Source: a virus (Duplodnaviria > Heunggongvirae > Uroviricota > Caudoviricetes). From it: a stretch of 64,000 bases of DNA. Made by a program: the position numbers and the translations under genes. The stretch lies in the IMG/VR virus record IMGVR_UViG_2778261268_000002; one strand, written 5' to 3'. Positions 6,402-37,374 of the stretch are shown piece by piece; the stretch's first letter is position 1; every line of letters starts with the position of its first letter. Under the pieces are notes generated by a model. The model made no database searches, was not told where the DNA came from, and was given only the letters and a program-made list of their open reading frames with translations.

Positions 6402-7831
6402 TCCTCCTCATACGAAATATTAAAGGTGGAGTTTTCTGTATCCAGATAAACGAAATCGTAAAAGCCGTTGGACTCATTCCACTCGACAAATTCCAGATAA
6501 AAGTCGCGGAAATAACCCAGCGTTTCGATAAACGCCCAAACGTCTTTTTTCTTAATCAGGATGTACTTTCCAACGCGGTTCGGATCAAAAAAAGTTGAAT
6601 CGCGCCCAAATTTTGTTTCCAGTGCCGACTTCAGCTCATCGGTCACATTCTCAATGGTCAGGCTTGCCGATATCCGTCCGGTGATGGTGATCTTAAAGGG
6701 TAGTTTTCTGACCTCTTTATAAGAGAATTTCTTGTTCAGTTCATTCGGTACCTTCTTAAAGGCAGTCAGGATCATTTCTTCAAGCTCTGACTGGCTTTTA
6801 TTTGGATGCCATCCTGAAATAAATATCTTATTGATATTCTGAACATTATAAGCACCATCTAATTTCTCTTGCTGGCCTTCGCCCCATGCCTTTACCCAGG
6901 ACAGCCCCGGGATGTTACGAACCAGAAAATACGTATAGTCCCCGCCCCATACGACCTGATCATCATAGGCAAGGTAATATTGTGCACGGTTACGTGTGAT
7001 CTCCGTTGTTTCAGCATCGGTACCTGCGGTTATAGGTGTCGTTGTCTTAACTGAAATCAAATTAGCTAAATTAGCCGCAGAATCGACAGGCGTCAGGTTT
7101 TGGCCAGCAACCAGGGTTATATCGCCGTTGGTGCACCATACCTTAAGCGTAATTGTCGAGCCTTCTGGCGGTATTTGCCCAATTAGTCCATCGCCGAATC
7201 GAACCCCCAACTGCTCGGAAGGTTTATAAAACTCAACGTAGACCTGGCTTTTACTACCGGCTAACCGGAACATAGTGCTGGAAGACCACTGCGTGGTCTT
7301 ACCATCGGTCGTCACGAATACTTCCAGCTTATAGCAGACAGCAGTGAGAGCCTTTGATAACACGACTTCCAGAAATTCTTTGGCTGCCGTAACGGTATAT
7401 GTCACCTCCTGGATTTCCAACTGTGCCACTTCTACCGTACCGGTGCCGTCAACCAACCTGCATACATCCATAGTCATGTAAGGGTACTGGTCGTCAGATA
7501 TTAAAGGCATGTTTTTGGGTATTACCGCTGGGGCATCTTCACTTGTGGCAGTGATCTCAATCATCCCCGATGACGGTGTTGGCTTGGTACCAACGTAACT
7601 ATTCGTTTCTGCCGCTGCCAGGATAGAGGAACGCCGCGTCGCGGTCGATATAAAGCCTTCAGCCAGCGCCGCATCGGCATACTGAAAGCACCTGTAGACA
7701 ATCTGGGTAATAAACAATGTCAGCATCGAGACAAATTGAGAGCCGACAAACTTCGACCAGAATGAATCTTTCTCGACAAGCTCTTCAAACTCTGCACGAA
7801 TACTGTCTTTAGTCGGTGTTGTTTTACTCAT
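6398..7831 (-). CDS. Baseplate protein (baseplate-J-like by position and size)
   Basis: 477 aa; overlapping stop/start with neighbours on both sides. Confidence 0.45.
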   Translation of the reverse strand: MSKTTPTKDSIRAEFEELVEKDSFWSKFVGSQFVSMLTLFITQIVYRCFQYADAALAEGFISTATRRSSILAAAETNSYVGTKPTPSSGMIEITATSEDAPAVIPKNMPLISDDQYPYMTMDVCRLVDGTGTVEVAQLEIQEVTYTVTAAKEFLEVVLSKALTAVCYKLEVFVTTDGKTTQWSSSTMFRLAGSKSQVYVEFYKPSEQLGVRFGDGLIGQIPPEGSTITLKVWCTNGDITLVAGQNLTPVDSAANLANLISVKTTTPITAGTDAETTEITRNRAQYYLAYDDQVVWGGDYTYFLVRNIPGLSWVKAWGEGQQEKLDGAYNVQNINKIFISGWHPNKSQSELEEMILTAFKKVPNELNKKFSYKEVRKLPFKITITGRISASLTIENVTDELKSALETKFGRDSTFFDPNRVGKYILIKKKDVWAFIETLGYFRDFYLEFVEWNESNGFYDFVYLDTENSTFNISYEEE

Positions 7832-8187
7832 AGCACCACGTCCTGTGTGATAGTTATATCCCTGATACGAATGGATATTTTCAACTTATCAAAAGCATCT
7901 CCCTCGGCTACTGACAAGCCAGAAATCGGTATGTCGGGTAAATCTACCGTCAGTTTTTGCAAAAGCATTGCCTCAACCGCAATTTGAACATGTGACAAGT
8001 TGGTCGGTTCGTGTTTAAACTGCGGTAAAACATTGCCCCATGACGGATCTCCGTATACCTCACCCTGATAAGTGTTTAGCCACTCATATAAACGAGCGCC
8101 CCAGGCCTCCTCCTGGGACTCATACGTTTTTACGCCGGATAACTCCAGCGTCAGTAAAGGATCAATTTCATTATTGTTGGCCATCAA
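7828..8187 (-). CDS. Small baseplate-region protein (possibly GPW/gp25-like)
   Basis: 119 aa; coupled to the flanking baseplate genes. Confidence 0.4.
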   Translation of the reverse strand: MMANNNEIDPLLTLELSGVKTYESQEEAWGARLYEWLNTYQGEVYGDPSWGNVLPQFKHEPTNLSHVQIAVEAMLLQKLTVDLPDIPISGLSVAEGDAFDKLKISIRIRDITITQDVVL

Positions 8188-11100
8188 TCAACTCTCGCGT
8201 AGTCATTCATCAACGGATCATCAATTGACAGTGGCACCGTGCGCATAACGCCCGGTTGAGGCGTGCTGACCTTTACGACAGTTCCCTGGCCTTTCGCCGA
8301 GTCTTTAGTGTGCTCTTCAATCCTGGCAAGCAATGAGGTCATCTGCGCAAACAGCCGCTTCGTTTCACCATCAAGTGAAACGGTATTATCAGCCAACTGC
8401 ATTGTCGGCTTGGCACCGGAGCCGCCAAGGTCACTAATAACCTGTCCGTCTATCTGCATACGACCGGTTGGTTGCTGCAAATCGTTGGCGGCAGTCGTCA
8501 CCTGGGACGTGGAGGCTGGTTCAGGCGCATTATTTTTCCGCATCCCCGGCGAGTTGCGGAGTTTATCGAATAGTCCATCAATCCCCATTTGTGCGCCGAG
8601 TTGGTCAAAGTAACTTGAGTTGCTGGCCACCGGACGCGCCTCTTCAACTGGCATCGGAGTATCAACATACACATTGCCAGCTGCTGTTGCGGTCCCCTTC
8701 CCTCGTGCACGTTCTTCGAGCGTTCCCTGAACGACTTCCCGACGCATACCCCGGCCATTCATGAATTTGTTGACCAGATCGTTAACGCCAACAGCATTGC
8801 CGATTTTGTCTACCAGACCGCCTTTCTCAAACGGGCTATCACCAGGGGTAAACGCCAGGCCAGTAGACTGATCGATAACGGCGTTATCAGGTATCTTTTC
8901 GTAAATTGCTGGTGCGCTATGATCTACCTTAGAGCCATAAACGGCACCATTATTGAGCATCTGCTGATACCCTCTGACACGAGTAACATATTCGCCGGTA
9001 CCTGCGACTACTCTCCCCTTATCAACATGCCCCATACCAGCATGATAGGCAGCTATTGCACGACCCTGATCACCGTTATAACGGTTCATCAGCATACTTA
9101 GGTATCTGGCGGCACCATCAGCTGCTTTTCGTGTATCCATGGCATCAGCATCGCTGAGTCCAAGATCCTCCCTTGTACCTTTAGTGATCTGAAAAGCCCC
9201 AAGGGCAGATGAAAGTTTGTTCCCGTTTTTGTCTACTGGATTTCCAGTTCTCTGGCCTGCACTAGACTCTGCGGATGCAACTGCTGACAGAATCCCTTTT
9301 TCAAGCCCATACTTACGTTCAAGCTCATCAAAATAATCGGCATTGTCAGAAATCCATTGGTATCCGGCAGCATTTAATTTTGGCAAAGAAACATCCTTGC
9401 CATTGTTAAATCGACGTTTATCTATCTCATATGCACTTAATGCTTCCTCCTTACCTGTAGCAGACTGCCCCAAGGCAGCATCAATTGTTTGTGCTGCTTT
9501 ATTTCCTGTTTCTACGGCATTTGCATTGATAATCTGATTAGCAGTTTCTTTAACTGTTTTATTGCTATCTTTCGCCATATCCAGGGCCGCATTTATCACG
9601 CGGGCAGCAATATTAGTCTGTTTGGCATCGGATTCAGTTTTAGAATCAGATGTCCCCTGGTGGCTATTAACCGGAGCTTTTAACTCTGGAGTGATTTCTT
9701 TCGCATTAGCCTCGCCGATCGGATTGGGTATTTTTGATACAATCATTGCCGCAGGGGTATTTTTAACGGCATCAACCGCTGCATCTAATGCTTTACCTGG
9801 TAAATTTTTAACCCCATCCCAAATATTACCAGCCGCCTCTTTAATGTGTTTCCCTGGGTTCTTAATGAAATCAATTGCACTATCAATTGCATCACTGAAA
9901 ACCTGTTTCAGGTTATCGACAGTAAAGAAGTCTTTGATGGCATCCAGCTTTTCAAGCAGCTTATTAGATGTATCGCTAAACCATGCTGAAACAGCATCAC
10001 CAATCTTTGCTGTGTAATCATCGAACTTGGTAGAAATGGTGTCGCCAAGGTTAGAAATATATGTTTCTAAGTTGGTAATCCCACTATCAATGGCCAGGGC
10101 AATACTTTCCGTCGAAAATGATTGCAACATATTGCCGATATCCTCAAATCCAAGTGATTTGAGAACCTCACCAATGGCGCTGCTAATACCAGATACCAGT
10201 CCCCCCATATCAAGAACATTAGCTAACGTATAAGCGGCTTTTTGCTGGAATGATGGATCTTGCCCTGATTTAAGCCCAAACGCTCGACGTTGCGCTTCTG
10301 TATCATTCCAACCGGTTACCGCATCATAAATACCTCCAGCCACTGTGCCGACTAGGGGAATTGCGCGTAACGCCCCTTTACCAACTGCCTTTAATCCAAG
10401 TTTACCTGCTGCCCGGGCAGCCAAATCTCCGCCTTCATGGGCGAGAGTCTTCTTGCCACCACCGCGTAGCATTCCTACAAGTTTCTTTGCCCCCAGAGCG
10501 CCAAAAGCGAGTGCTCCAGCTTTTTTCAGCATGCCACGCCCCATTAACAACGACGCGACGCCACCGGCCCCCTTCCCTAACAGGCTAAATAATTTGGACA
10601 GCAAGCCGCCCTTCTTTTTCCCGGTGTTTTTGGCTATCTGATCAAGGGCGCTGAGAATCTTGTCATTGCCCTCTTTAATTTCGCTGGTCTGATCCTGAAG
10701 TTCCTGAACCGTCCGTTTTTGGGTGTTAACCTGAACGACATCGGCACTATTTTGCGATTTACGCCTAAAAAAACCTTTTCTACGGCTGTTATCGTCATTG
10801 CCACGAATCACATCGGCAATAGACTTTCTGGCACCATTAAGCGATCCACCAACTTCTTTTGATATCCCGCCAAGCTCCTTCCCTGCGGCCCACAATGGAC
10901 CAGCAACGGCATAACCTAACGCATCGACGGCACGAGTCTCTGAAGGGTTACCTATGCCTTCAGCTACTTTTGACAGTTTTTTTAATAAACCTGATTCAGC
11001 ATTTAGACGCTCATCATCCTCTTTTCGCCTGGCCTTTTCTGCTCGTTCAGCACGGGCATCTTCCGCTGCGGCCTTACTCCCTGACTTTCCAATAAAACGA

Positions 11101-11558
11101 CCACGCGCATCGCGTTGGTTTTGGCTTTTTTGCGCACCGCCTTTTTGACCGAACATTTCGCGAGCGTGTTCGGCTGCTTCGGTCCGTTGCGCCTTTACAT
11201 CCTCTGGTATAGCCTTCCTGCGTCGTTTTTTACCATTTGGTGTGGTTGATTTGGCCCGCTGTTCCTGTTGAGCAACATCTTCCTGAACTACACGAGAAAC
11301 GTCCCCTAAATTAAGCCGTTTCATTGCGTCAACAATAGGGTCTACTGATGGCGCTTTGGCCACAAAGTCAGGCCGGGAATTTTCGATTGTGTGATTTAAT
11401 GCCGACACGCTGCGAGAGACAGGATCAACAGTAGCAACTCGCCCACCTTTCAAATCTTCAACAGCTTCCCGGATACCAGCAAGCTCTTCCAGCTCTTTTG
11501 CGCTGGCGGTTTCAACTGTCCTTATAACATCGTCAATGTTGGCGTTTTTTCTTTCCAT
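8184..11558 (-). CDS. sit: Tape-measure-like injection protein with soluble lytic transglycosylase domain
   Basis: 1124 aa; Gly/Ala/Lys-rich helical central region; transglycosylase motif ...GAFQITKGTREDLGLSDADAMDTRKAADGAARYLSMLMNRYNGDQGRAIAAYHAGMG. Confidence 0.8.
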   Translation of the reverse strand: MERKNANIDDVIRTVETASAKELEELAGIREAVEDLKGGRVATVDPVSRSVSALNHTIENSRPDFVAKAPSVDPIVDAMKRLNLGDVSRVVQEDVAQQEQRAKSTTPNGKKRRRKAIPEDVKAQRTEAAEHAREMFGQKGGAQKSQNQRDARGRFIGKSGSKAAAEDARAERAEKARRKEDDERLNAESGLLKKLSKVAEGIGNPSETRAVDALGYAVAGPLWAAGKELGGISKEVGGSLNGARKSIADVIRGNDDNSRRKGFFRRKSQNSADVVQVNTQKRTVQELQDQTSEIKEGNDKILSALDQIAKNTGKKKGGLLSKLFSLLGKGAGGVASLLMGRGMLKKAGALAFGALGAKKLVGMLRGGGKKTLAHEGGDLAARAAGKLGLKAVGKGALRAIPLVGTVAGGIYDAVTGWNDTEAQRRAFGLKSGQDPSFQQKAAYTLANVLDMGGLVSGISSAIGEVLKSLGFEDIGNMLQSFSTESIALAIDSGITNLETYISNLGDTISTKFDDYTAKIGDAVSAWFSDTSNKLLEKLDAIKDFFTVDNLKQVFSDAIDSAIDFIKNPGKHIKEAAGNIWDGVKNLPGKALDAAVDAVKNTPAAMIVSKIPNPIGEANAKEITPELKAPVNSHQGTSDSKTESDAKQTNIAARVINAALDMAKDSNKTVKETANQIINANAVETGNKAAQTIDAALGQSATGKEEALSAYEIDKRRFNNGKDVSLPKLNAAGYQWISDNADYFDELERKYGLEKGILSAVASAESSAGQRTGNPVDKNGNKLSSALGAFQITKGTREDLGLSDADAMDTRKAADGAARYLSMLMNRYNGDQGRAIAAYHAGMGHVDKGRVVAGTGEYVTRVRGYQQMLNNGAVYGSKVDHSAPAIYEKIPDNAVIDQSTGLAFTPGDSPFEKGGLVDKIGNAVGVNDLVNKFMNGRGMRREVVQGTLEERARGKGTATAAGNVYVDTPMPVEEARPVASNSSYFDQLGAQMGIDGLFDKLRNSPGMRKNNAPEPASTSQVTTAANDLQQPTGRMQIDGQVISDLGGSGAKPTMQLADNTVSLDGETKRLFAQMTSLLARIEEHTKDSAKGQGTVVKVSTPQPGVMRTVPLSIDDPLMNDYARVD

Positions 11559-11639
11559 GATCTTATCGCCTACCGTTTCGGTTTAAGTTTTTCTTCCAGT
11601 TTCTCCAACAGGAAAAACGCATAGGATTCAGTGAGCCTT

Positions 11640-12521
11640 TCAGCGTCCTGAATCGGTATACCCCCATACAAAACCAGGTTGGACACTAAGGTCTGATAGC
11701 TTTTCAATCCCCACCTGTGGAATGAAGTCGGTAGCCCGAAAGGGCACCCACAGACGGGTATACGCACCCTCTGTGGACTCCTTTTTATCCTGGTTTGGGC
11801 ATTTATGCGGCGGGAGACGAAGACGCATTTCACCTTTATCGATGTAGCACGGTAAACCATGTTCGAGCTTTTCATGAGCCAGTCGGATGTGTGCCGCCAG
11901 CTTCATAAATTCAGTATCAATGGCCATCCGTTTAATCGTTTCATAACGACGCTCAGCCTGATCTTCACGAGTACCGCTAACATCGTTATAAAGCTCACAC
12001 TGATAAGCGAATTCCCAAAAACGCAAATCAACGATCGCTTCTTTGAATTCCGCGTCGTCTTCAGGTGGCAATGCTGCACGGCGCATCTCCAGCATTTCCA
12101 TTGCCCAACCATCAAGCGGCACGATACGCCATTGATAAGGCACTCCCTCTACAGACACCTCAATATCGTCAATGAAAGGTTCCACTTCCAGGACCTGGAT
12201 ATCTTCAGCCAGAGCATTCATATCGCAATCGTAATAATGCTCTTTACCGCAATGTTTACAGGTGTAGGTGAATGTCTCGACCGGTGTTTCACGGGAGCCG
12301 GTAAATATCCACCATAACGCGGTAATCCGGTCCTGCGCCGTCCATGTCAGGGGATCATGTTTCGCGGGTTCAGCCAGCAAGGCTTTTAAATATGCCGTTG
12401 TCTGTTGTTCTTGTTCCTCCGGTGTTATCGAGTTGAAACGCATCGCATCAGCAATATTTGGCTGACGGAACTGGATCAATTCAGTTGGCCGCGATGGTAG
12501 CGGGAAAAGGGGTAAAAGCAT
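11640..12521 (-). CDS. Tail morphogenesis protein (hypothetical)
   Basis: 293 aa; Cys cluster CKHCGKEHYYDC; an overlapping frame (11570-11875) has a protein-like C-terminus, so a frameshift is possible. Confidence 0.5.
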   Translation of the reverse strand: MLLPLFPLPSRPTELIQFRQPNIADAMRFNSITPEEQEQQTTAYLKALLAEPAKHDPLTWTAQDRITALWWIFTGSRETPVETFTYTCKHCGKEHYYDCDMNALAEDIQVLEVEPFIDDIEVSVEGVPYQWRIVPLDGWAMEMLEMRRAALPPEDDAEFKEAIVDLRFWEFAYQCELYNDVSGTREDQAERRYETIKRMAIDTEFMKLAAHIRLAHEKLEHGLPCYIDKGEMRLRLPPHKCPNQDKKESTEGAYTRLWVPFRATDFIPQVGIEKLSDLSVQPGFVWGYTDSGR

Positions 12522-22398: not shown

Positions 22399-22908
22399 TT
22401 AATCCCACTCAATCCAGTTGTAAACGATACGAAGTGACGGACGCACAGCGGCAGTCACATCTTCGGTACTAAAGTCGATTGCATCACTGTAGATTTTGCA
22501 GTCCAACATTTCAATTGTTGTAGCAGCTTTTGTCACAGCGTTAACCCCGGAAGATTTGGATTCAGGGGTCGCAGCCATCGTGATATCAACATAGTCCTTC
22601 GCCGCAATGCGATCTTTAATGAACTGAAGAATATCGCCTTCGATAGTCTCCACGCACTGGACCTGGATTTCCCCAGAGTTTCGAATTGGACCGTGCTGGT
22701 TGAACTTCACACCATTCGGACCATAGTCCTCCACATCCTCGCGGGTCATTTCAGGAATTTGCGACGTGCGAACCAGTACGCTGATATCTTCATGGCCTGC
22801 AAAAGTGAGCTGGAATTCAGAAGATACCAGTCGTTCGCCTTTGGCCGCGTTGGCAGTATAGCGGCCCTTAATAAATTTACGGTTTCCCTTAGTGTTATTG
22901 TGCCCCAT
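22399..22908 (-). CDS. Putative baseplate/tail structural protein
   Basis: 169 aa; composition and size typical of tail tube or baseplate proteins; in operon with sheath and capsid genes. Confidence 0.45.
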   Translation of the reverse strand: MGHNNTKGNRKFIKGRYTANAAKGERLVSSEFQLTFAGHEDISVLVRTSQIPEMTREDVEDYGPNGVKFNQHGPIRNSGEIQVQCVETIEGDILQFIKDRIAAKDYVDITMAATPESKSSGVNAVTKAATTIEMLDCKIYSDAIDFSTEDVTAAVRPSLRIVYNWIEWD

Positions 22909-22919
22909 ATAAAATCCTT

Positions 22920-23501
22920 TTACTGGAACGCCCGAACAATATCGGAGCTGTTATATATCGAAGAACCGGTCAACTGGAGGTTGACGGTGTTTTTCAGGAA
23001 ATGCCCATTGCTGTCCCTGGGCGCATCGAGATCGAAACTTATGTCCTGGATAGCGACATCAATGATGTTGATCCGGCGACCAATGTTTAGCGTCACACGC
23101 TCCGGGATTCGACCTCCAATACTGGCATCTTTAAGTTCCGGGCTAATCATCGCTGACAATGCGGCGATAGCTCCTGAAACCTCCGTGAATGGATCAAACA
23201 AAGCGATGAAAGTTACTGGCAGCGTGAAAGTTGGCGGTGTTCCCCCCTCCCAAACCATTAAGCTGTTCCAACGGGCCACCGACGTTGTTTCAGTACCAAC
23301 CTGCGCAAAACCACTGAAGGCACCAGCAACAGACCCCATGGACATACCGGTAAACGGCGCTTCCCAATTCTGGGCCATGTTCATTGCTGCCCCCTGGCTG
23401 ATATATCCGGTAACCTGGTACTGAGAGTTCGTTAAAGTAACTTTCAGAAATGGCGATACACCGTCAGCCTGGCTGTAAACCCCATAAGGTATAGGTGCCA
23501 T
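22920..23501 (-). CDS. Hypothetical structural protein
   Basis: 193 aa; Gly/Ser/Ala/Thr-rich. Confidence 0.45.
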   Translation of the reverse strand: MAPIPYGVYSQADGVSPFLKVTLTNSQYQVTGYISQGAAMNMAQNWEAPFTGMSMGSVAGAFSGFAQVGTETTSVARWNSLMVWEGGTPPTFTLPVTFIALFDPFTEVSGAIAALSAMISPELKDASIGGRIPERVTLNIGRRINIIDVAIQDISFDLDAPRDSNGHFLKNTVNLQLTGSSIYNSSDIVRAFQ

Positions 23502-24361: not shown

Positions 24362-25951
24362 TTACTTAATAAGCAGCGGTACGCCCTGGATACGACGGGC
24401 TACGCCAGTCGGGCAGCAGGCCCAGACTACTTCCCATTTATCGAATTCCGCCTGCGTAACTTTCAGCACATACGGTTCTGTACCGTCAGCATCAGGATCA
24501 CGAGGAGCCACCAGAGCGCCGGAGGCGACAAAGCGATCCAAAAGTTTGGTCATCCCTTTAGTCAGACCAGCGGCAGTAATACCGTCAGGGCTATGCTTCA
24601 TCTGGCGGGCTAACTGGACAAAGAAACGGCTGATTGCATTCATCAGGGATGGGACGTGCTGGAAGTGCAGATAGTTATCCTGCGTGCAGCAAGTTAAAGC
24701 ATCGTCGATGATCATCTGGCCAGAGGTGCCAACAGATACTTTATTGAGACGGCCCTTGACCATTGCTTCTTCGTCCGGGGTATCTTCCGGATACAGCGGT
24801 TGAATTGACGCACGAGCAATGACGGCACGTTCTTCACCAGCCGGTGAGTAATGCCAACCGCCGACATCGGAGTTTTTCTTGACGCCACGAGCTTTCGCCG
24901 CATACGCCGCGCCAGACAGACCGAAGACCACGCGGGATTGGGTCCATTTGTCTTTGCAGGAGAACGGGAAATGATAGACAGCACAGCTTACATAATCGGT
25001 ACCAAGTAAACCGGTATCTTCAACAGCAGAGATCGCTTCCGTGTACGTCAATGTCGGTTTGACATCAAAGAAGCCATCAATCAGGCGATCAGAACAGATA
25101 TTACCTAACGCAGTGATCGCCGCATTGTCATAGCAACCCAGGCCGAGAACAGCGGTGTACATGTACGGCGCATTGTTCAGCACTTTCACCGCACGCAGGT
25201 AAGCAGCAGTGGAAATGTTCGACTGATCGCCGTTGGTACCGCCAGTGAACGCCAGCGATTTTTTATTTGTTACTTTCGCCGTCGAAATCAGCTCTTCATT
25301 AACAACCGCGCGCAGATATTTAGAACGGGCTTCCAGAGCCGTAGGCAGATAACACAAGCGGCCCATGTCATCTTTCGCTTCTTCCGCCAAAGACACAGTG
25401 TGTGTCTCCAGGGTCGTTACCACGCCGAGCGAAGTCGTCTGGGTCAGTTTTAAGAGGAAGCGTTCATTACCCGCGCTGTCCGCTGTTGCCGTTTCGATGG
25501 TTAACTCACGGGTAGGTGAAATACACGGATCACCATCATCAACGTAGATAGCAAAGGCTTCGCCGCTATCAAGTTCAATTTCAGAACCGTATGGCAACGC
25601 ACTGTAAGCCGGTTCGCCTGATTCATCGAACATAATAATCGGGAACTTCGCATCATCCGGAACAGCACGGACAACATAACCAGACGTTTGCTGAATAGCT
25701 TCGTACACATGGCGAATTGGTTCGAACTGTGAGCCGGAAGACGGCTTCAGCGGTTCGCCGAGAACATCTTCGTAATTGGACTCAGTAACCGCAAGAACAG
25801 TAAACGGCTTGCCACGCGCAAATACGCCAATACCAGCCCACAAGCTGCTATTTAATGCAACACCGGTAGATAACGTCGCATCGGCATTGATCGGGCTAAC
25901 AGCGACGCCGGATGCATTACCTAATGACTGTTGAATTGAATATTGAGACAT
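24362..25951 (-). CDS. Contractile tail sheath protein
   Basis: 529 aa (about 57 kDa); sheath-like composition and size; precedes tail structural genes. Confidence 0.65.
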   Translation of the reverse strand: MSQYSIQQSLGNASGVAVSPINADATLSTGVALNSSLWAGIGVFARGKPFTVLAVTESNYEDVLGEPLKPSSGSQFEPIRHVYEAIQQTSGYVVRAVPDDAKFPIIMFDESGEPAYSALPYGSEIELDSGEAFAIYVDDGDPCISPTRELTIETATADSAGNERFLLKLTQTTSLGVVTTLETHTVSLAEEAKDDMGRLCYLPTALEARSKYLRAVVNEELISTAKVTNKKSLAFTGGTNGDQSNISTAAYLRAVKVLNNAPYMYTAVLGLGCYDNAAITALGNICSDRLIDGFFDVKPTLTYTEAISAVEDTGLLGTDYVSCAVYHFPFSCKDKWTQSRVVFGLSGAAYAAKARGVKKNSDVGGWHYSPAGEERAVIARASIQPLYPEDTPDEEAMVKGRLNKVSVGTSGQMIIDDALTCCTQDNYLHFQHVPSLMNAISRFFVQLARQMKHSPDGITAAGLTKGMTKLLDRFVASGALVAPRDPDADGTEPYVLKVTQAEFDKWEVVWACCPTGVARRIQGVPLLIK

Positions 25952-26011: not shown

Positions 26012-27739
26012 TTACTCAGAGTCACCGGCATCAATCGTGTCGCCGCTTATGAAGTTAAGCCCGCCTTTTTTGGCCATTGTCAGCGTTACACGAGTGAAGT
26101 AATCAGCGCCGTTGCGTGGGTGCATATCGTTGATAGCCGAACCCCACAGCGTGGTACGGTTGACCAGCGCCGGAGTGGTCGGATGCTGGAACGGGATGGC
26201 CGGGACAGCATCACCAGTCACGAAGCCTGCTTTACCCGGATTTTCATCACGGACGTAGCACAGCACATCCATCGAGCTGAACTGAATGTTCTCTGTCGTT
26301 AAGTTCTTACAAATACCAGCAGGTACTTCGTACACTTTCACGTTACCGAACAGGGTACCGATGTAGTGAACATACGGAGTCTGGATATAGTCTTCGGCTG
26401 GCTGGAAGAAATCCTTCGGCAACTGTTTGAAGAAAGATGCTGCATCAGCACCAGCAAACATCCCCATCGCACCAGAAGATTTAACGCGCTCAATAATGTC
26501 GCGATATACAGTCTGGAATTTGCCACGAATGATGGTTGCCCATACATCAAAGGACTGGTTAACCGGCAGAGCGATGTCAAAGGTGTCGGTCGCAAGAGTA
26601 CGCCAGATCATGATGCGAAGACGCAGCATATCCTGTTCATGAGACAGGTATTCCTTCAGGGTGCGGAACTGTAGGGAACCCAGGTCCAGACCAAATTCTC
26701 GCTGTGCTTCATACGCCGCCTGTACCGTGTGCTCAGCCGCGATAACGAACTGGCTTGGGAACAGGGTGTATTTCTTCATTTCGTGGTTGATCAGCGGGAT
26801 CAGCTCAGGAGCGGCTTCAATATTGATTTCCGTCTCAATTGCGATCTCAGTGCCTTTATCCGGCGCTTTGGAGAACGACAGGGCAATCTGACCAATGTTG
26901 TAGTTCAGAGAGCAGGTAACAGTGATTTGCTCACCAGCAGCATTAGTAAACGAGTGAAGTAGGCTGCCGGAACCGTTATCAACAACAGACTTAATACGGT
27001 TAACGTAGATATTAGTGCGACCTTTTCGGATTGGTACATTCTGGCCTTCGAAGTCTTCCATCTTGAAGGTTGCGGTTTTGCTGGTGCCATCGGAGCTTGC
27101 CACCAGCACATAGCGGCGGCGTAACTGGCTGTACACACCGACGGATTGCATGTCCAGAACATCACCAGCAGCATAAGAACCAAAAGAGGAACCTGCCACG
27201 TTAAAGACTTCATAGATGTCGGACTGGTCACGCGTAACCGGAATGAAGGTACACGCATCAGCGGTAGCTGCCCCCAACTGAACAGGCAGGATCATCGCGA
27301 GGAATAAAGGCAGACGCATAACACCGTCAGAAACGCTCATCATCTCTGCTGCGACGGATTCCAGCATCGCTTTATTAGTGGCATCCATGCTATTGCGGGT
27401 GGACTCAATCAGGCAGTTTTCCAGCGTCTGGTGGCAGGAGGCCAGAATTTCCGGACGCGGCATAGATTTATGTGCTGCGGCGTAGTCAGCCAGTGCACTT
27501 GCCCACGCTGTAGCGATTTGAGCGGTGGCATTATCAGAGATACCCGCAAAAACCGGGTCTTTACGTGCAGCTTCAAGGATAGATGCGGCACGCGCGGCAT
27601 CATCTTTAATGAATTGGTTATCAGTACCGAACTGCGCAGTGCTTGCCCAGCCAAGCACAGCTTTAGAGCGTTTTGCGATATCTGCAATACGATTCTGGTA
27701 TTCGCGTAAGTTACTCAATTTACTCTTCCTTAAACACAA
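26012..27739 (-). CDS. Major capsid (head) protein
   Basis: 575 aa; position directly upstream of parS as in P1 gene 23; track start is TTG, true start uncertain (alternative TTG at 27718 with RBS AGGAAG). Confidence 0.55.
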   Translation of the reverse strand: MCLRKSKLSNLREYQNRIADIAKRSKAVLGWASTAQFGTDNQFIKDDAARAASILEAARKDPVFAGISDNATAQIATAWASALADYAAAHKSMPRPEILASCHQTLENCLIESTRNSMDATNKAMLESVAAEMMSVSDGVMRLPLFLAMILPVQLGAATADACTFIPVTRDQSDIYEVFNVAGSSFGSYAAGDVLDMQSVGVYSQLRRRYVLVASSDGTSKTATFKMEDFEGQNVPIRKGRTNIYVNRIKSVVDNGSGSLLHSFTNAAGEQITVTCSLNYNIGQIALSFSKAPDKGTEIAIETEINIEAAPELIPLINHEMKKYTLFPSQFVIAAEHTVQAAYEAQREFGLDLGSLQFRTLKEYLSHEQDMLRLRIMIWRTLATDTFDIALPVNQSFDVWATIIRGKFQTVYRDIIERVKSSGAMGMFAGADAASFFKQLPKDFFQPAEDYIQTPYVHYIGTLFGNVKVYEVPAGICKNLTTENIQFSSMDVLCYVRDENPGKAGFVTGDAVPAIPFQHPTTPALVNRTTLWGSAINDMHPRNGADYFTRVTLTMAKKGGLNFISGDTIDAGDSE

Positions 27740-27855
27740 GGCACTTGTGTGAATCCCTTTTCGGAAGAGATTTTATTGAAAGTCACTTGTTGACTTTCTC
27801 GTGACAAGAAATTTTTTTATTTTTTTCGGGAGGAGGGGAGAAAGGTAAAATCCAA

Positions 27856-30431: not shown

Positions 30432-30716
30432 GATGTGTGCTGGAGGGAGAATAAAAGTCTAAGATGTGCGATAGAGGGAAGTCGCATTGAATTATGTGCT
30501 GTGGAGGGATCGCTGGTATCAAATATGTGTGCTGGAGGGAAAGACAGAGAATTACATGTGCACTGGAGGGAAAAACGGATGGACAGATGTGTGCTGGAGG
30601 GAAAGTCTGAGCAAACTGCGGGGCGTCCCCCTCCAGCGCACATCAAAAACGGGAAATTGGACAAGCCTTCCCGGCAGCACACATTTTTTGAATGCAGCTG
30701 CCCTCCAGCACACACT
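30432..30716. repeat. incA: incA iteron array (about 9 copies, both orientations)
   Basis: Repeats of GATGTGTGCTGGAGGGAAA and variants downstream of repA. Confidence 0.8.
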
Positions 30717-31576
30717 TATTCGGGGAGTTTCAGCTTTGGATTGCGAGAATGGACGATTACAAAACTTTCCCGGCCTTTCTTCTCAATTGAACAGTCGAGA
30801 TAGCCGATTGTTTTAAGCTGTTCTATCGCTTTCTTAATGATACGGTTTTGCTCGCCAACAGCTGACTGCAAAGCCAGGCGCTCACGGATTCGCGCGAACG
30901 ATAGCGGCAACGGGTTCTGCGGAAGGCTTTCGATGAAAGTGTAAATGGCTTGTGCAGCTTCTTTCTTCGGAAGGGCACGCAAGGCGTGGTGTTGCAACAG
31001 AACGCGATAATCAAGCTGGAACAGCTCCCACAGCTTCGAATCAGCCTCCAGCTCTATCAGATCAAGGTCAGCATCAAAACGCCCGACCTTCAGCAGACCA
31101 GTCTGATAGCCGCCTTTAGCATCTTTTCCGCGCTTAAAAGCGATACCCTTGTTACGCAAGCGTCCAAGTGATTCATGAATGGTTAAACGCAGTTTCGCAT
31201 CCAGACGTTTTGAGGGGAAACCACAGGCTTTAGCGAATTCCTGAAACGATAACTGGATGGTGTTTGAGGACAAGCCGTATTTGCTGAACGCGTAGATGAC
31301 ACCGATCCACGTTTTGAAATCAGTATCCATATCGAGTCGAGGACCGGTGATTTTAATATCATCGTAACCCTCGGCTTTAGCTATCTCCAGCTGGGAAAAC
31401 GCTTTGGTGGCATCAATCTCTTTACTTTCTCCTTTGCTCTTTGATGGCTTCGGAACGAATACCCCCAAGCGCATCAACGCTACAGGCTGGACAGTGTTGT
31501 TTGAATTAACTGTTAGTTCTTTTGCCTTACTTTCAATGTCTGCGTAAAGAATATCGGAGATAAATGATTGATTCAT
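30716..31576 (-). CDS. repA: Plasmid replication initiator RepA
   Basis: 286 aa; MNQSFISDILYADIESKAKELTV...; flanked by iteron arrays; recognised as P1-type RepA. Confidence 0.9.
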   Translation of the reverse strand: MNQSFISDILYADIESKAKELTVNSNNTVQPVALMRLGVFVPKPSKSKGESKEIDATKAFSQLEIAKAEGYDDIKITGPRLDMDTDFKTWIGVIYAFSKYGLSSNTIQLSFQEFAKACGFPSKRLDAKLRLTIHESLGRLRNKGIAFKRGKDAKGGYQTGLLKVGRFDADLDLIELEADSKLWELFQLDYRVLLQHHALRALPKKEAAQAIYTFIESLPQNPLPLSFARIRERLALQSAVGEQNRIIKKAIEQLKTIGYLDCSIEKKGRESFVIVHSRNPKLKLPE

Positions 31577-31893: not shown

Positions 31894-32286
31894 TTATTCT
31901 ACGCTTTCGATAAGAAGACCATGTTCATAGCATTTAAGCTCATCGCCTTCATACAGGAACTGGTATCCAATACCACCATATTCAGGCACATTAGGGAATA
32001 ACTCATCACTTACCGAAGAACAAATCACACCAATGCAGCGATCAACGCCTTCTCGTTCTTCAGTGCTGAAAAAATCCTCTTCGGTAAGAACATGAGTGCA
32101 TTGCTCATCAGCATAGGTCGGAAATACATGCTCGATGCAATCCGGGTGTTTTAAACCAAGCTGATTGGCAAGCTCGAAAGCATGACGGTATTGTTCAGAT
32201 CCTGGCTTGCCAACAGTGATTTGCTCAATTTTGTAGATTGAAGTCGCTTTGTTGATAGTTTGCTTTACTGTTACTTTATCAGACAT
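31894..32286 (-). CDS. Hypothetical protein
   Basis: 130 aa, acidic; no recognised motif. Confidence 0.45.
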   Translation of the reverse strand: MSDKVTVKQTINKATSIYKIEQITVGKPGSEQYRHAFELANQLGLKHPDCIEHVFPTYADEQCTHVLTEEDFFSTEEREGVDRCIGVICSSVSDELFPNVPEYGGIGYQFLYEGDELKCYEHGLLIESVE

Positions 32287-32297: not shown

Positions 32298-32549
32298 TTA
32301 GTTACCGCTGATAGCGCGGTTGTAATCATTAACGTTGCGATTCTTCCTGTTAATCCCCATCAGCATCGTTTCTGTATCAAGGATATACGCTGGCAGATCA
32401 TCAAAATATTCACTGCTAAACTCTGGCATCCTGCACATAAACGCACTTTTGGGGGCAGGGTGGTTAACCTTTGTCGGCGTCGGCGTTAAATTCGCTGATC
32501 GACTCCCGGAGCAACCGCTGAGTGTCAGCAGGAATACGCTGGCGAACAT
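32298..32549 (-). CDS. Proline-rich lipoprotein (outer-membrane spanin-like)
   Basis: Lipobox LTLSGC then TPTPTKVNHPAPK and a single Cys; gene overlaps the 3' end of 32464-32886 in another frame. Confidence 0.5.
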   Translation of the reverse strand: MFASVFLLTLSGCSGSRSANLTPTPTKVNHPAPKSAFMCRMPEFSSEYFDDLPAYILDTETMLMGINRKNRNVNDYNRAISGN

Positions 32550-32886
32550 TACCCGCCGCAACCAGTTGTTTCTGAACTTCAGCTTTTCGTTCCATTTGCC
32601 TGTCAGCATACTTGGCTTGTTCTGATTCATTTTTCACTTCCTGGCTGTGAAAATGTTGCTCTGCTTTGTTCATCGTCTCAATGGTCTGGTTAAGATCCTT
32701 TATTGACTTATCACGTTCCTTAACAGCCTGATCAAGACTGCCAATTTTCTCGATGGCTTGCTTTAGCTGATGACGTTCCCATACAAACCCAGCACCAACA
32801 AGTGCGCAAATCAGAACAAGAACACCAGTAGCAGCAAGTTTCTCCTTCAAAGACAAAGCTGTTTTTAACGTAGAAAAGAATGACAT
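32464..32886 (-). CDS. N-terminally anchored coiled-coil protein (inner-membrane spanin-like)
   Basis: 141 aa from ATG at 32886; TM segment LAATGVLVLICALVGAGFVW then helical periplasmic region. Confidence 0.5.
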   Translation of the reverse strand: MSFFSTLKTALSLKEKLAATGVLVLICALVGAGFVWERHQLKQAIEKIGSLDQAVKERDKSIKDLNQTIETMNKAEQHFHSQEVKNESEQAKYADRQMERKAEVQKQLVAAGNVRQRIPADTQRLLRESISEFNADADKG

Positions 32887-32925
32887 GTCTTCCTCCTGAA
32901 GAAAAATTATCAATGAAGTCCTTTG

Positions 32926-33714
32926 TTACTGTGCCGCTTTGTTTAATTCATCAAGAACAGAATCAGGAACCAAAGCGGCAACTGCGCTGGCTGTGCTGGC
33001 CTTATTTGCTGATGCTTCCGCAAGCGCGGTACCGATAGCATGGTTATAAGCAGTTATGGCTACGTTGGCGCTTTCATTCGCTCGTTCATACTGCTGTTGT
33101 AACGCAGTTGTGGGCGCTGTTGTCTGGTTGAAAACAACCCCAAACTGTTCAGTTGCTACTTTCAGAGATTCAATTTGCTCTTCTGTTAGTGTTGGTGGGG
33201 GAGTGGCAGTGCCGCCGCCTGAACCAGAGCCTGACGAGCTTACTGAGCCAGTGTTAAGGGTCTGGTTAATCTCCCCCATAGCAGCGACTAAACTTGATGT
33301 ATTAAGCGCGTTAACAGCGTCCTCAAGCGATTTAGTAATATTCACATCACCAATGGCAATAGAGATCGGCAGTTCTGAAACTTCTCGCTCATTAGCACGG
33401 CAGTAAACATCCCAACCAATATCGAGTTGAAGCAGCATTGACAGATCTGCATAACCAGCCAACAGGTCCGCGTGCTTAGTTGCCAGTTCTCCAATGTTCG
33501 TTAAGCCGGTTGTAGTTGTTCTGATCGTTGAAACATAACTGGTAATAGTGTCGGGATAGACAATTGTATCCAGAATTAATCCGGTCAATTCTTCTGCAAG
33601 CAGTTTTGCTGTGTTAGCACTGTTTCGTGCCGATGTTATGGCACCAGGTGTTTTCATCCCACCAGCGGCGGCCAATTTTTTATATGCGGATAACTGGTAG
33701 TCTTTTTCCAGCAT
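32926..33714 (-). CDS. Hypothetical Ser/Gly/Thr-rich protein
   Basis: 263 aa from ATG at 33714 (RBS AGGAG); poly-Ser/Gly linker GSVSSSGSGSGGG. Confidence 0.5.
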   Translation of the reverse strand: MLEKDYQLSAYKKLAAAGGMKTPGAITSARNSANTAKLLAEELTGLILDTIVYPDTITSYVSTIRTTTTGLTNIGELATKHADLLAGYADLSMLLQLDIGWDVYCRANEREVSELPISIAIGDVNITKSLEDAVNALNTSSLVAAMGEINQTLNTGSVSSSGSGSGGGTATPPPTLTEEQIESLKVATEQFGVVFNQTTAPTTALQQQYERANESANVAITAYNHAIGTALAEASANKASTASAVAALVPDSVLDELNKAAQ

Positions 33715-33722
33715 GATATCTC

Positions 33723-34007
33723 CTAACTTACCTGAACCAGGCCGTCTCCGGACGCTACGGTAGATCCGCATGAAACAGGGTCACCAACGCATACGATCCC
33801 TTTACCATTGACGGTAAACCATGCCCTGGTTGATATAGCTTGCCCACCGTGCGTACTGTTTCCATCGGTATGCTGTGCATATTGCTTACCATCAACTAAC
33901 ACTTCGACTCCGTTGACTTTAAGTAGTGGTTCACTCTCTACAGGAGGCCTGGATGGGAATCCTCCGTGCCCCGAACAAATGCTGTCTTTTGTTGCAATAC
34001 TTGCCAC
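33723..34007 (-). CDS. PAAR-like / gp5.4-like spike-tip protein
   Basis: 94 aa; pattern VNG..V.VDG...HTDG..THGG....VNGKGIVCVGDPVSCGSTV resembles PAAR-repeat proteins. Confidence 0.4.
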   Translation of the reverse strand: MASIATKDSICSGHGGFPSRPPVESEPLLKVNGVEVLVDGKQYAQHTDGNSTHGGQAISTRAWFTVNGKGIVCVGDPVSCGSTVASGDGLVQVS

Positions 34008-34088
34008 GTCATCACCAATTATTTGCTCTGATTTTCGTTATTTTAACTCAGGTTGTTTGTGGTCTACATGGCGTTTACCTATTATAAA

Positions 34089-34105
34089 ATTGCTCTAATA
34101 AATAT
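34089..34105 (+). promoter_or_regulatory. Repressor (C1-type) operator
   Basis: ATTGCTCTAATAAATAT. Confidence 0.55.
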
Positions 34106-34176
34106 TGTTTTTTATGTCGTATTTTCGGTACCATTCAGCCATCGCCCTTCAATGGGCATTTGTTTGGAGTCGTCAG

Positions 34177-34461
34177 ATGCAGATGGAGCTAATAAGCCGC
34201 AAAGAGTTCGATAGCCGTGTAACCAGCGGTGAACTCGACAACTTGCAGGCTATCAAGGTGAAAGAAGGCTTTTGCCTCATTGGGAATCAGAGCGGAACAA
34301 ATCGCGTTTTTATGCTTCGCCGTACGGATTTGAAGCCATTTGTCTGGAAGAACGAAATTGGTCCCAGCTCATACGCTCAAACGAGGGGGGGCCACAACCT
34401 GGCCTTTTTCTACAAAGACGAGCTTTCTGTGGTTGATATTCAAGGGTTACAACATGTTTAA
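34177..34461 (+). CDS. Hypothetical protein upstream of the rdgC homologue
   Basis: Start uncertain (track ORF begins 34105). Confidence 0.4.
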
Positions 34462-35359
34462 GCACTGGAAAAACATTACTATTTATAAACTTTCTCGTGA
34501 GGCGGATCTGACCGACTTAGAAGATAAAAAGAAAATGATCCTTTTCACGCCATGCGGTAGTCAGGATATGGCCAAGTTCGGTTTTGTATCTCCATTTGGT
34601 GATAATTCCGAAGTTATCGCTATGCATGGAAATGGTTTTATCCTTGTTGAAGCAAAGCGCGAAACAAAAATTCTTCCCCCGCCGGTTATCCAGCGAGCTA
34701 TTCAAGAAAAAATTGAAAAACTTGAGCAAGAACAAGCGCGTAAACTGAAGAAAACAGAGAAGGACTCCCTGAAAGACGAAGTTCTGCATTCTCTTCTGCC
34801 ACGAGCTTTTTCAAAGTTTTCTGTTATCCAGGCGATCTACGACGGTTCAACTAAACGTATCTATATCAATGCCAGCGCGCGGCAGGCAGAGGATATGCTC
34901 GCGCTTATGCGTAAGTCTCTGGGTTCTCTTCCTGTTGTTCCCCTGAGTGTTGAAAATCCCATTGAATTAACGCTGACCGACTGGGTACGTGATGCTCGTG
35001 CTCCACAGGGATTTCAAATGGGGGATGCGGCAGAACTTAAGGCAGTGCTTGAGGATGGCGGTATCGCCCGAGTGAAAAAGCAGGATTTGGGAAGCGATGA
35101 AATTTCCACACACCTGGAAGCTGGCAAGCTCGTCACAAAGTTGGCACTCGACTGGCAGAACCGCATTAAATTTACACTGGACCATAACTTCAGCCTTACC
35201 AGCGTCAAATTTGCGGATGAATTGCTTGAGCAGAACTCTGATATTGATAGTGAAGATGTAGCGCAGCGACTGGACGCAGATTTCTTCCTGTTAACCAGTG
35301 AAATTTCGTGCCTGGTTGATGCTCTGGTAAATGCCCTGGGCGGAGAGGCTAAGCAGTGA
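34454..35359 (+). CDS. hrdC: Recombination-associated protein RdgC homologue
   Basis: 301 aa from ATG at 34454; ...[13 protein letters not shown]...KILPPPVIQ...[26 protein letters not shown]...[10 protein letters not shown]...LGGEAKQ, near-collinear with E. coli RdgC. Confidence 0.75.
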
Positions 35360-37374
35360 GAGAGCTGTGCTATGGATCTGTTTGCAGTGGAATTGAAGCC
35401 GCGAGCATTGCCTGGGAACCGTTGGGTATGCGTCCGGCGTGGTTTGCTGAGATCGAGCCTTTTCCATCTGCCGTTCTTGCGCACCGCTGGCCCCATGTCG
35501 CCAACCTTGGCGACATGACAAAACTCGCCCAAAAAGTCCAGGCAGGAGAAATTGAAGCCCCTGATATGCTCGTCGGGGGTACGCCTTGTCAGGCATTCAG
35601 TATCGCGGGCTTACGTGGTGGGCTTGATGATGAGCGCGGCGCGCTAACTTTGAAGTATGTGGAGCTTGCAAATGCAATTGACGACAAACGGGCTGAGTCC
35701 TTCCTCAAACCAGCAGTTATCGTCTGGGAAAATGTCCCAGGAGTCCTGTCATCAGCAGATAACGCGTTCGGATGTTTCCTTGCCGGATTGGCTGGAGAAG
35801 ATGCGCCATTCGAACCTGGTGATCGACCTGAATCACGAAAAAGTAATACGTTCTGGCGGTGGGATGTCAAAACCGGTTGCCATGCTCCAAAGTGGCCGCA
35901 GTGTGGTTGTATTTATGGACCGCAGCGAAAAGTGGCCTGGAGAATCCTTGATGCCCAATACTTCGGAGTGGCACAACGACGCCGACGCGTGTTTGTTGTC
36001 GCAAGTGCTCGAACAGACCTCGATCCCGCAACGGTACTTTTTGAGTTCGAAGGCGTGCGCCGGAATATTGCGCCGAGCAGAGGCGAGGGGAAGGAAACTA
36101 CCAGATATACTTCAAACATCGCTATCAGAACTTGCGATGATACAAACATAATTGCCATGGCACATGGGCAAGGAGGGGCTGAGATAAAAACCGATAATTC
36201 GGCACCAACTTTGACATGTAACCATGAAGCACCAATTGTATTGCTCGGCGACGGTAGAATGCGCCGTCTTACCCCTGTCGAATGTGAAAGGCTGCAAGGT
36301 TTTCCTGATGGGCATACGTTGATCCCGACGGAAAAGCGTAAAAAAGTTAATTCAGATGAACTGGCATATCTTCGCAATCACTATCCAGATTTAAGCGAAG
36401 AAGAGGTCGCGATGCTTGCAGCTGACGGACCGCGTTACAAAGCGATCGGCAATAGTATGGCAATACCAGTAATGTGCTGGATTGGAGATCGGATTACTAA
36501 GGCCGTATGTCGGCAGAAAGAAGGAAGTGAAACAAAAGAGCGAAAAGTTAAACCAGCGGCAGAATTCGAACGGTCCATATTCAAATGGGCTGGTGGAAAA
36601 TTTGGTGTTCTGGAACAAATCTTTCACTATTTGCCAGAAGGGAAGCGCCTGATTGAACCTTTCGTTGGTGGCGGAGCTGTCTTCATGAATGCCGGATACC
36701 AGGAAAATCTGCTAAATGATGTGAATGCTGACCTGATTAACTTTTACAAGACTCTGCAACGCGAGGCGCATTCACTTATCACTCTGGCACATCGTTTCTT
36801 CCTGGACTACAACACCCAGGAGGGATTCCTGGCAGTACGGAATGCGTTTAACAAACAAGTCTATGATGATTTACATCGCGCAGCGGCGTTTTTGTTCCTG
36901 AACCGACATTGTTTTAATGGATTGACGCGCTACAACCAGGCCGGTGAGTTCAATGTCGGTTATGGGAAGTATAAAACTCCGTATTTCCCATTACAGGAGA
37001 TGGAAGCCTTCCTCGGTGCGGAAGGGCGGTCTGAGTTTGTATGCGGTGATTTTGCAGCAGTGATTGAAGCTGCCGGAGAAGGAGATGTCATCTTTTGCGA
37101 TCCGCCGTATGAACCGCTCCCCAATACAGAGGGGTTTACGAACTATTCCGGTCATGACTTTAAGTTTGAAGAGCAAAAACGCCTGGTGTCTCTGTTGACG
37201 GATGCTCATCGCCGAGGTGCAAAGGTACTCATTACTAACAGTGGCGCGCCAAACGTCAGAGAACTTTATCAGGACAGTGGCTTCAGAGTGGAACCTCTCT
37301 TTGCCAGACGTTCTGTGTCTTGTAAGGGAGACACTCGTGGTGTTGCTCATGACGTTATGGCTATATTGCTCTAA
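35356..37374 (+). CDS. dmt: Bifunctional DNA methyltransferase (N-terminal cytosine-C5, C-terminal Dam-like adenine-N6)
   Basis: GTG start overlapping the hrdC stop; C5 motifs [27 protein letters not shown]; C-terminal WAGGK and DPPY motifs. Confidence 0.8.

Follow-up and report, generated by a model that had tools for sequence, protein, structure and literature searches.

UpfC of a P1-like phage-plasmid, a PAAR-fold protein of the gp5 needle tip encoded at a distance from its spike gene

What kind of protein is encoded by a 94-residue reading frame that stands several kilobases from the nearest spike gene of a contractile-tailed phage, and is it plausible that this protein forms the tip of that spike? 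The question arises from a sequence-only reading of a 64,000-nucleotide stretch of viral DNA (the window; IMG/VR record IMGVR_UViG_2778261268_000002), which had proposed a PAAR-like spike-tip gene for a protein of 94 residues at 33723-34007, and both the coordinates and the length prove to be exact. The frame is read from the minus strand, with a GTG start at 34007-34005 and a TAG stop at 33725-33723, and its translation begins with MASIATKDSICSGHGG and ends with GDGLVQVS. The window represents a P1-like (Punavirus) phage-plasmid, in which the frame is the upfC gene, whose product is almost certainly an accessory, metal-pinned PAAR cone that caps the gp5 needle and serves as an anchor for UpfB. 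In the following, gene identity, PAAR homology, fold, ligand conservation, gene coupling and the presence of a suitable gp5 partner come from our own analysis, with the virion location, stoichiometry and dispensability of UpfC taken from the literature.

The frame at 33723-34007 is a genuine gene and not a chance open reading frame, given the recurrence of its protein in IMG/VR, in Cronobacter phage JK004 and in phage D6, the existence of 71 matching cluster representatives, and its conserved start. A viral-contig scan with the single protein found 80 P1-like IMG/VR contigs that encode the 94-residue product at 97-99% identity and no locus beyond these near-identical ones; for the context of more distant loci, two members of the phage collection were used, JK004 and D6, in which identity to UpfC is 78% and about 56-57%, respectively. 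The 71 representatives, found in a collection of 5.8 billion proteins, extend down to approximately 40% identity; where they are full-length, a length of exactly 94 residues prevails, and many derive from contigs of around 90 kb from Salmonella, Cronobacter, Enterobacter, Serratia, Xenorhabdus, Pantoea and Buttiauxella. The start position is likewise conserved: every P1-like locus has GTG there, and JK004 and D6 use ATG at the homologous codon. Direct reading of the sequence places a Shine-Dalgarno-like GGTGAT (34011-34016, minus strand) 3 nt 5' of the GTG, and a GGTGA/GGTGG-type element is kept at this position in nearly all of the 82 P1-like loci, with GGTAAT in one. A 96-residue plus-strand frame at 33808-34098 and the other short frames that overlap upfC are presumed to be shadow ORFs.

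The assignment to upfC is straightforward. Across 32800-34600 the window shares 95-99% DNA identity with 18 phage records of the P1-like group (P1, P7, SJ46, RCS47, JL22 and others), and the reference P1 record, AF234172, annotates the equivalent frame as upfC at 64779..65063, its GenBank annotation of 2004 describing UpfC as 31% identical to T4 ORF5.4. P1 UpfC (AAQ14038.1; 9vyi chain A) is alike in its position between upfB and uhr, its length of 94 residues and its GTG start. The chain named "UpfC" in the P1 baseplate cryo-EM structure (9vyi_A) is identical to our translation at 93 of 94 residues, the single difference being residue 86, which is Ser in the window and Ala in the solved chain. 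The translation is also identical to an upfC frame left unannotated in the P1 isolate OP279344. Elsewhere the window element is a variant relative to P1, for example in dmt and sit.

Membership of the PAAR superfamily (PF05488 / cd14671) is apparent from the sequence, though this single protein sits below the gathering threshold: it matches the Pfam PAAR_motif family PF05488 at E=8.5e-6 and 26.4 bits, marginally under the curated cut-off of 27. The same profile is matched by 37 of 38 aligned UpfC relatives, the best at 2.4e-21, and PHROG family phrog_281 ('PAAR motif of membran proteins') matches UpfC residues 1-93 at E=2e-30. Of the two profiles that the sequence-only reading had named for a search, PAAR matches and DUF4150 does not, as PAAR_motif is the sole family found in a Pfam search at E<=1 and DUF4150 (PF13665) is absent from it. 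Among solved structures, the single sequence retrieves the T4-like tip 9f4b_BA (4.8e-10), T4 gp5.4 (5iv5_ZA/4ku0_D; 8.6e-8 to about 1e-7) and the Vibrio cholerae type VI secretion (T6SS) PAAR protein VCA0105 (4jiv_D; 3.7e-4), and a UpfC family profile returns T4 gp5.4 at 5.5e-16, VCA0105 at 3.8e-12 and E. coli c1882 (4jiw_D) at 2e-7. In the phage collection 1,177 records hold a UpfC relative, 1,158 of which match at <60% identity, with T4-like phages forming the majority among the matches listed. The full-length match to phrog_281, in a contractile-tail phage with a separate gp5-type spike, places UpfC in this tip family, and both gp5 and the sheath gene 22 are encoded in the window (tblastn). 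PHROGs itself files phrog_281 under 'moron, auxiliary metabolic gene and host takeover' and not under 'tail'.

The repeat pattern first noticed in the sequence is real though degenerate, and a literal P-A-A-R motif is absent from UpfC. Three PAAR-equivalent segments, as is characteristic of the superfamily with its pseudo-threefold symmetry, can be recognized at approximately residues 2-9 (ASIATKDS), 34-41 (VEVLVDGK) and 69-76 (KGIVCVGD), and these align with PAVTRQGD, VPVHRRGD and KAIGRTGD of distant relatives whose repeats are more canonical (P0066, P0067 and P0070). T4 gp5.4, an accepted member of the PAAR family, is equally degenerate in its repeats (PMC12407873).

Structure prediction gives an unambiguous PAAR fold for the modeled protein. 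The AlphaFold2 model built on a 38-sequence alignment (pLDDT 97.8, pTM 0.87) has the conical shape with three intertwined beta-hairpins that typifies the family, and superposes on P1 UpfC, T4 gp5.4, c1882 and VCA0105, in agreement with the fold that had been foreseen from the sequence; prediction from the single UpfC sequence was uninformative (pLDDT 40.5). A Foldseek search of the PDB yielded five matches at E<=0.001, all of them PAAR proteins with TM scores of 0.87-0.97: 9vyi, the P1 baseplate cryo-EM structure, C1 (TM 0.97, rmsd 0.7); 4ku0_D, T4 gp5.4 (TM 0.93, rmsd 1.3); 9f4b_BA, a chain named 'Phospholipase' from the baseplate cup of the Klebsiella phage KP1 variant vB_Kpn_Lilla1 (TM 0.93); 4jiv_D, VCA0105 (TM 0.88); and 4jiw_D, c1882 (TM 0.87). 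The PAAR-repeat tip phiKZ gp163.1 (6p1z_D; TM 0.68, E=0.07) ranks next, and no non-PAAR protein in the PDB scored better than E=0.2, with ribosomal proteins following at E>0.2.

These searches also bear on the possibility that UpfC is an enzyme, as the database names of its relatives would have it: many homologues in NCBI and UniRef are called 'alanine racemase', and 'phospholipase' is attached to T4-like homologues, to 9f4b_BA and to the protein of phage JL22. Against these names, Pfam at E<=1 returns PAAR_motif and no enzyme family, and the predicted and solved folds of UpfC are both PAAR cones. At 94 residues, UpfC seems far too small for an alanine racemase. Moreover, 9f4b_BA is a chain in a baseplate-cup structure, so the enzyme names are best understood as propagated mis-annotations. 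We therefore reject the 'alanine racemase' and 'phospholipase' identities, which have neither profile nor fold support, and an enzymatic role for UpfC is scarcely credible.

A closer comparison with the known PAAR tips highlights a likely metal site. When 39 sequences, T4 gp5.4 among them, are aligned, the positions without variation are M1, G13, H14, G33, H46, H53, G55, D76, C80 and G81, and H14, H46, H53 and C80 are unchanged across the P1-like, distant and T4 sequences. The predicted ligands are His14 (codon 33966-33968), which aligns with H14 of T4 gp5.4 and is invariant in the 39 sequences, together with His46 (33870-33872), His53 (33849-33851) and Cys80 (TGC, 33768-33770), each an invariant column in both of our alignments (A1 and A2); all four codons are read from the minus strand. 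UpfC thus has the predicted ligands of an apical, tetrahedral 3His+1Cys site. In T4 gp5.4 the equivalent tetrahedral site binds Fe, and an H14A mutant no longer binds the spike (PMC12407873). By analogy with gp5.4 and the type VI secretion PAAR proteins, we infer that UpfC is likely to bind metal as well.

A spike of the appropriate kind is encoded in the window. Gene 5 (42961-43593, minus strand) is 98% identical to P1 gp5 by tblastn and specifies a 210-residue trimeric beta-helix spike, or needle, which at E=2e-51 falls into phrog_430 ('baseplate hub subunit and tail lysozyme'). The protein is without a lysozyme domain, and a scan of its whole length for H.H found no HxH motif; spikes of this class have been proposed to require a separate tip protein (PMC12407873). 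Gene 6 (43586-44602, minus strand; tblastn 98.5% to P1 gp6) encodes the trimeric baseplate hub that carries the gp5 spike (PMC12810830). Cryo-EM of the P1 baseplate has placed monomeric UpfC on trimeric gp5 (PMC12810830; PDB 9vyi), and a second, independent cryo-EM study also puts UpfC at the tip of the P1 needle (bioRxiv 2025.07.21.665459). In one of these two studies the gp5/gp6/UpfC spike is an unrefined AlphaFold2 multimer placed in the map. Taken with the PAAR profile and the PAAR fold, the published position on gp5 supports the spike-tip role that had been read from the sequence, and the grounds that reading had named for giving it up do not hold. On its presence in virions, which that reading had also implied, the published data come from two methods: UpfC went undetected when purified P1 virions were analyzed by LC-MS/MS, which the authors blame on there being one small copy per particle (PMC9024508), whereas cryo-EM shows the monomer in place on gp5.

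The LC-MS/MS result is one of several observations that would fit a different kind of protein, namely a 'moron' or T6SS-style PAAR protein with a function in the lysogen, for example capping a host VgrG spike or carrying an effector, and not part of the virion. The PHROGs category of phrog_281 points in the same direction, as do the label 'uncharacterized Zn-binding protein involved in type VI secretion' that JGI attaches to several homologues and the setting of upfC near plasmid-maintenance genes, with the upstream C1 operator Op68 annotated in the P1 record as the operator of the divergent dmt promoter. However, UpfC is a bare 94-residue PAAR core with no effector extension, there are no T6SS genes among the genes mapped in this P1-like phage genome, and UpfC does not show the combination of an extension or effector domain with vgrG/T6SS linkage by which effector-PAAR proteins are recognized. 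Furthermore, its nearest relatives outside the P1-like phages, among the matches listed, are the gp5.4 tips of T4-like phages, its gene is coupled to upfB, whose product has itself been assigned to the tail tip (PMC12810830), and the P1 needle carries it in both cryo-EM studies. We consider a non-virion, lysogen-acting role very improbable.

The T6SS proteins VCA0105 and c1882 have the PAAR cone in common with UpfC and, according to the titles of their PDB entries, attach to a trimeric beta-helix spike at its blunt end, but they share only 14-22% identity with UpfC, in which the canonical PAAR motifs are degenerate. They cap bacterial VgrG proteins and have many relatives with effector domains, whereas the needle capped by UpfC is that of a phage and UpfC is free of any extension. 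The closer parallel is T4 gp5.4 (4ku0_D, 5iv5_ZA), which at 97 residues is similar in length to UpfC and shares its fold and 3His+1Cys positions at a sequence identity of ~30%; both sit as a monomer on a trimeric gp5 beta-helix and both are dispensable for plaque formation, although P1 gp5, unlike that of T4, is without the lysozyme domain. In phiKZ, gp163.1 is a PAAR-repeat tip bound to a gp5 beta-helix, but is structurally more distant from UpfC, and in P2 the tip is fused to the spike gpV, with no separate tip gene, in contrast to a P1 gp5 that is without HxH.

Dispensability, in turn, decides between an accessory tip and an essential nucleator of baseplate or spike assembly. Contractile systems depend on the spike complex as a unit to assemble their baseplates, and the tip proteins are among the most conserved of all tail proteins, the comparison of T4 with P1 yielding this sole pair (PMC12407873), both of which would be compatible with UpfC as a nucleator. 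Genetic evidence argues otherwise. The 2022 study that connected UpfC with T4 gp5.4 by HHpred found that deletion of upfC had no effect on plaquing (PMC9024508), and in a genome-wide CRISPRi screen both upfC and upfB were non-essential, with an efficiency of plating of ~1 on upfC knock-down (PMC10695390). Particle assembly likewise proceeds without T4 gp5.4, which is dispensable for assembly, matters for fitness, and is required on an hldD LPS mutant (PMC12407873). An essential assembly role for UpfC is accordingly very hard to sustain, and we retain the reading of UpfC as an accessory tip.

The position of upfC relative to the genes of its partners can be described from P1 proteins mapped onto the window by tblastn. 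On the minus strand, in order of rising coordinate, R (5052-5483) is followed by the wedge genes gp16 (5565-6398), bplA (6401-7831) and pmgA (7831-8184), and then by sit (8187-11558), bplB (22402-22908), pmgG (22923-23384), the sheath gene gp22 (24365-25951), the capsid gene gp23 (26015-27718) and repA (30716-31576). At the coordinates just below upfC lie upfA (31894-32286), mlp (32298-32630), ppfA (32464-32886) and upfB, all on the minus strand. Beyond it, uhr (34177-34461), hrdC (34454-35359), dmt (35356-37374) and ban with dbn (40551-42910) occupy the plus strand, and genes 5 and 6, gp24, gp7 and gp25 (together 44607-47325) and gp26 (47335-47595) the minus strand. The gene is indeed far from the baseplate genes, with 8,954 bp between it and spike gene 5 and ~25.5 kb between it and gp16/bplA/pmgA, the wedge genes (5565-8184), but it does not lie on the opposite side of the window from the baseplate clusters, as had been thought; instead it sits between the two. 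Its supposed replicon-adjacent flanks are also not what the map shows, since the actual neighbors are upfB, the ppfA/mlp spanins and upfA on one side and uhr-hrdC-dmt on the other, and repA begins at 31576, ~2.1 kb from upfC.

The separation of tip and spike genes is comparable in related phages, being 8.95 kb in the window and 8.6, 8.2 and 7.3 kb in P1, JK004 and D6, respectively, and it follows that this separation is an old and conserved feature of the lineage. That a tip gene need not adjoin its spike gene has already been remarked in a preprint on T4 (PMC12407873); in T4, gene 5.4 lies ~1.1 kb 3' of gene 5 inside the baseplate cluster, in contrast to upfC, which is 8.95 kb away across the dmt-ban region. 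On its other side, what separates the upfC-upfB block from the genes for capsid and sheath differs from phage to phage. In P1 and JK004, repA stands between the block and gene 23, and in P1 parA and parB are found there too, whereas in D6 only a few small frames and no plasmid-maintenance genes intervene between the block and the capsid/sheath genes, the D6 partition genes being on the opposite side of upfC.

Far from being an orphan, upfC leads a conserved upfC-upfB pair. The upfB gene (32926-33714, minus strand; tblastn to P1 UpfB residues 1-262; phrog_1559) encodes 262 residues from an ATG at 33714, 8 nt past the upfC stop, and the ribosome-binding site of upfB, AGGAG at 33724-33720, shares nucleotides with the upfC TAG. 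A longer upfB frame can be drawn from the ATG at 33771; it has 49 nt in common with upfC, which is how P1 was first annotated. This 262-residue UpfB agrees with the annotation in OP279344 and matches phrog_1559 end to end (positions 1-263 of the 263 in the profile), and the start at 33771 is probably a longest-ORF artefact. The spacing of 8 nt between the two genes is found in all 80 IMG/VR P1-like loci; JK004 has 9 nt, and in D6 the two genes overlap by 1 nt. UpfC is far more strongly conserved than UpfB, with 56% identity to its D6 counterpart compared with 26%. The genes 3' of upfB are ppfA/mlp, an overlapped Rz/Rz1-like spanin pair (phrog_89, 7e-25; phrog_30284, 6.5e-79), followed by upfA, and 5' of upfC, in divergent orientation, is the uhr-hrdC-dmt operon with a promoter region that contains a C1 operator according to the P1 annotation. 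As for the protein, three UpfB trimers (the 'tripod') have been assigned to density on the P1 spike tip, and in these terms UpfC would be the platform on which they stand (PMC12810830); no UpfB homologue was found adjoining T4 gene 5.4. For the tripod, that assignment was made in a map of medium resolution into which an AlphaFold3 model had been fitted (PMC12810830).

We propose a model in which UpfC adopts the PAAR-repeat fold, a small cone built from three beta-hairpins, with a tetrahedral metal site formed by His14, His46, His53 and Cys80 pinning the cone at its apex. A single UpfC monomer would bind the trimeric gp5 beta-helix needle at its blunt, C-terminal end in the center of the baseplate, capping and sharpening the needle, so that on contraction of the sheath the capped needle could be driven through the host outer membrane. 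In this model UpfC would also act as the docking site for the UpfB trimers, as the published cryo-EM suggests, with upfC likely translated directly before upfB from one mRNA. UpfC may aid penetration in this way without being required for it, since its deletion or knock-down leaves plaque formation intact. The sharpening and penetration role is one that we infer from T4 gp5.4 and the type VI secretion PAAR proteins, and we assume that upfC is co-expressed with the other virion genes.

How such co-expression might be achieved was approached through a promoter search. The upfC-uhr intergenic region, 169 bp in length, accommodates both Op68, a C1 operator (34089-34105), and Pdmt, the divergent promoter. 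From LPs we derived a pattern for the Lpa-dependent late promoters of P1, AAGTTACTT-N4-TAnAAT, which occurs at three sites, all on the minus strand: LPs itself (5514-5532), just 5' of gene 23 (27770-27788) and ~150 bp 5' of gene 26 (47742-47760). When up to 3 mismatches were allowed, the 9 matches overall were at chance level and none lay 5' of upfC, where the P1 record annotates no late promoter either. The region does contain a weak late-promoter half-site, GAGTTAAAA-TAAC-GAAAAT at 34049-34031, which reads AAGTTAAAA in P1 itself. A sigma-70 scan gave a sole match of 9/12 at 34046-34018, the number of matches in the region being that expected by chance, and a transcript from this site would start at or within the upfC Shine-Dalgarno sequence. 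A perfect minus-strand TATAAT at 34086-34081 is not conserved in P1. The late-promoter and sigma-70 scans thus identified no convincing promoter for upfC-upfB. Read-through into upfC from the late operon of genes 26 to 5 was also considered; no minus-strand terminator-like site was found directly 3' of gene 5, and such a transcript would need to run for 9 kb antisense to ban and dmt. The main text of the P1 RNA-seq paper (PMC8201110) makes no mention of upfC, upfB, ppfA or mlp.

The coupling of the two genes leads to a further, tentative proposal, in which upfC and upfB form a conserved, translationally coupled cassette of a tip plus a tip-mounted adaptor. UpfC would then be mainly a PAAR cone for the docking of UpfB trimers, required only under certain conditions and perhaps expressed other than through Lpa, given the C1 operator in the 169-bp region and the lack of a late-promoter match 5' of upfC. 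We regard this as unlikely on present evidence. If it were correct, the cassette would be a phage analogue of the cargo-carrying PAAR proteins of the T6SS, and the conditional need for it might arise, for example, on hosts with an altered LPS or outer membrane, as has lately been demonstrated for T4 gp5.4.

Each element of the spike-tip interpretation is already known, in that the upfC gene, its PAAR homology, its dispensability, its place at the needle tip and a PDB structure have all been published. The homology dates from 2004, the functional prediction and knockout from 2022, and the structure from 2025-26. The present analysis therefore carries little weight as a discovery, and its practical value lies in the annotation of upfC and of the upfB start in P1-like genomes. 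The gene is absent from several deposited P1-like genome annotations, and where it does appear it can be misnamed, as 'alanine racemase', 'phospholipase' or 'PAAR motif of membran proteins'.

The distance from the tip gene upfC, which encodes the PAAR-repeat spike-tip protein, to the spike gene is 7-9 kb and is kept in all three of P1, Cronobacter phage JK004 and phage D6. What differs between these phages is the content of the interval that separates the upfC-upfB block from the head and tail genes. In P1 and JK004, repA is found between this block and the capsid gene (gene 23), with P1 additionally carrying parA/parB there, whereas in D6 (locus 4400-12282) the corresponding interval, which extends to the capsid and sheath genes, contains only a few small ORFs and no plasmid-maintenance genes, its different partition system being located on the opposite side of upfC.

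The sequence-only reading had described the neighbours of upfC as replicon-adjacent genes, a description that does not hold between upfB and upfA. Downstream of upfB, which encodes the reported spike-tip 'tripod', two overlapping minus-strand genes, ppfA (32464-32886) and mlp (32298-32630), together span 32298-32886 and match phrog_89 (7e-25) and phrog_30284 (6.5e-79). They form an Rz/Rz1-like spanin pair, and the upfB-to-upfA interval therefore holds lysis genes instead.

The longest upfB ORF (32926-33771, minus strand) starts at 33771 and overlaps upfC by 49 nt, as it does in the original P1 annotation. Alternatively, translation from the ATG codon at 33714, whose AGGAG ribosome-binding site overlaps the upfC stop, gives a 262-aa UpfB that matches phrog_1559 end to end, and this start is consistent with the gene starts in the P1 isolate OP279344, JK004 and D6. 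The longer start is probably a mis-annotation. Several deposited P1-like genomes, OP279344 among them, do not annotate upfC at all, and elsewhere the gene carries propagated wrong names ('alanine racemase', 'phospholipase' and 'PAAR motif of membran proteins').

The C1 operator Op68 lies at 34089-34105 in the upfC-uhr intergenic region (34008-34176), which also carries the divergently oriented promoter of dmt. For upfC itself, we found neither a recognisable Lpa late-promoter box nor a good sigma-70 promoter in this region, the sole Lpa-type trace being a weak half-site, GAGTTAAAA-TAAC-GAAAAT, at 34049-34031.

The methyltransferase gene dmt (35356-37374, plus strand) is a 672-aa ORF lacking roughly residues 79-418 of the 1013-aa Dmt of OP279344. 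The reference P1 record has a Dmt of yet another length, and dmt is therefore a variable region. The tape-measure/transglycosylase gene sit (8187-11558, minus strand) encodes a protein that shares just 84% identity with P1 Sit and carries indels relative to it. Identity to P1 is 99-100% in the baseplate genes on either side, which suggests that sit is a mosaic or fast-evolving segment.
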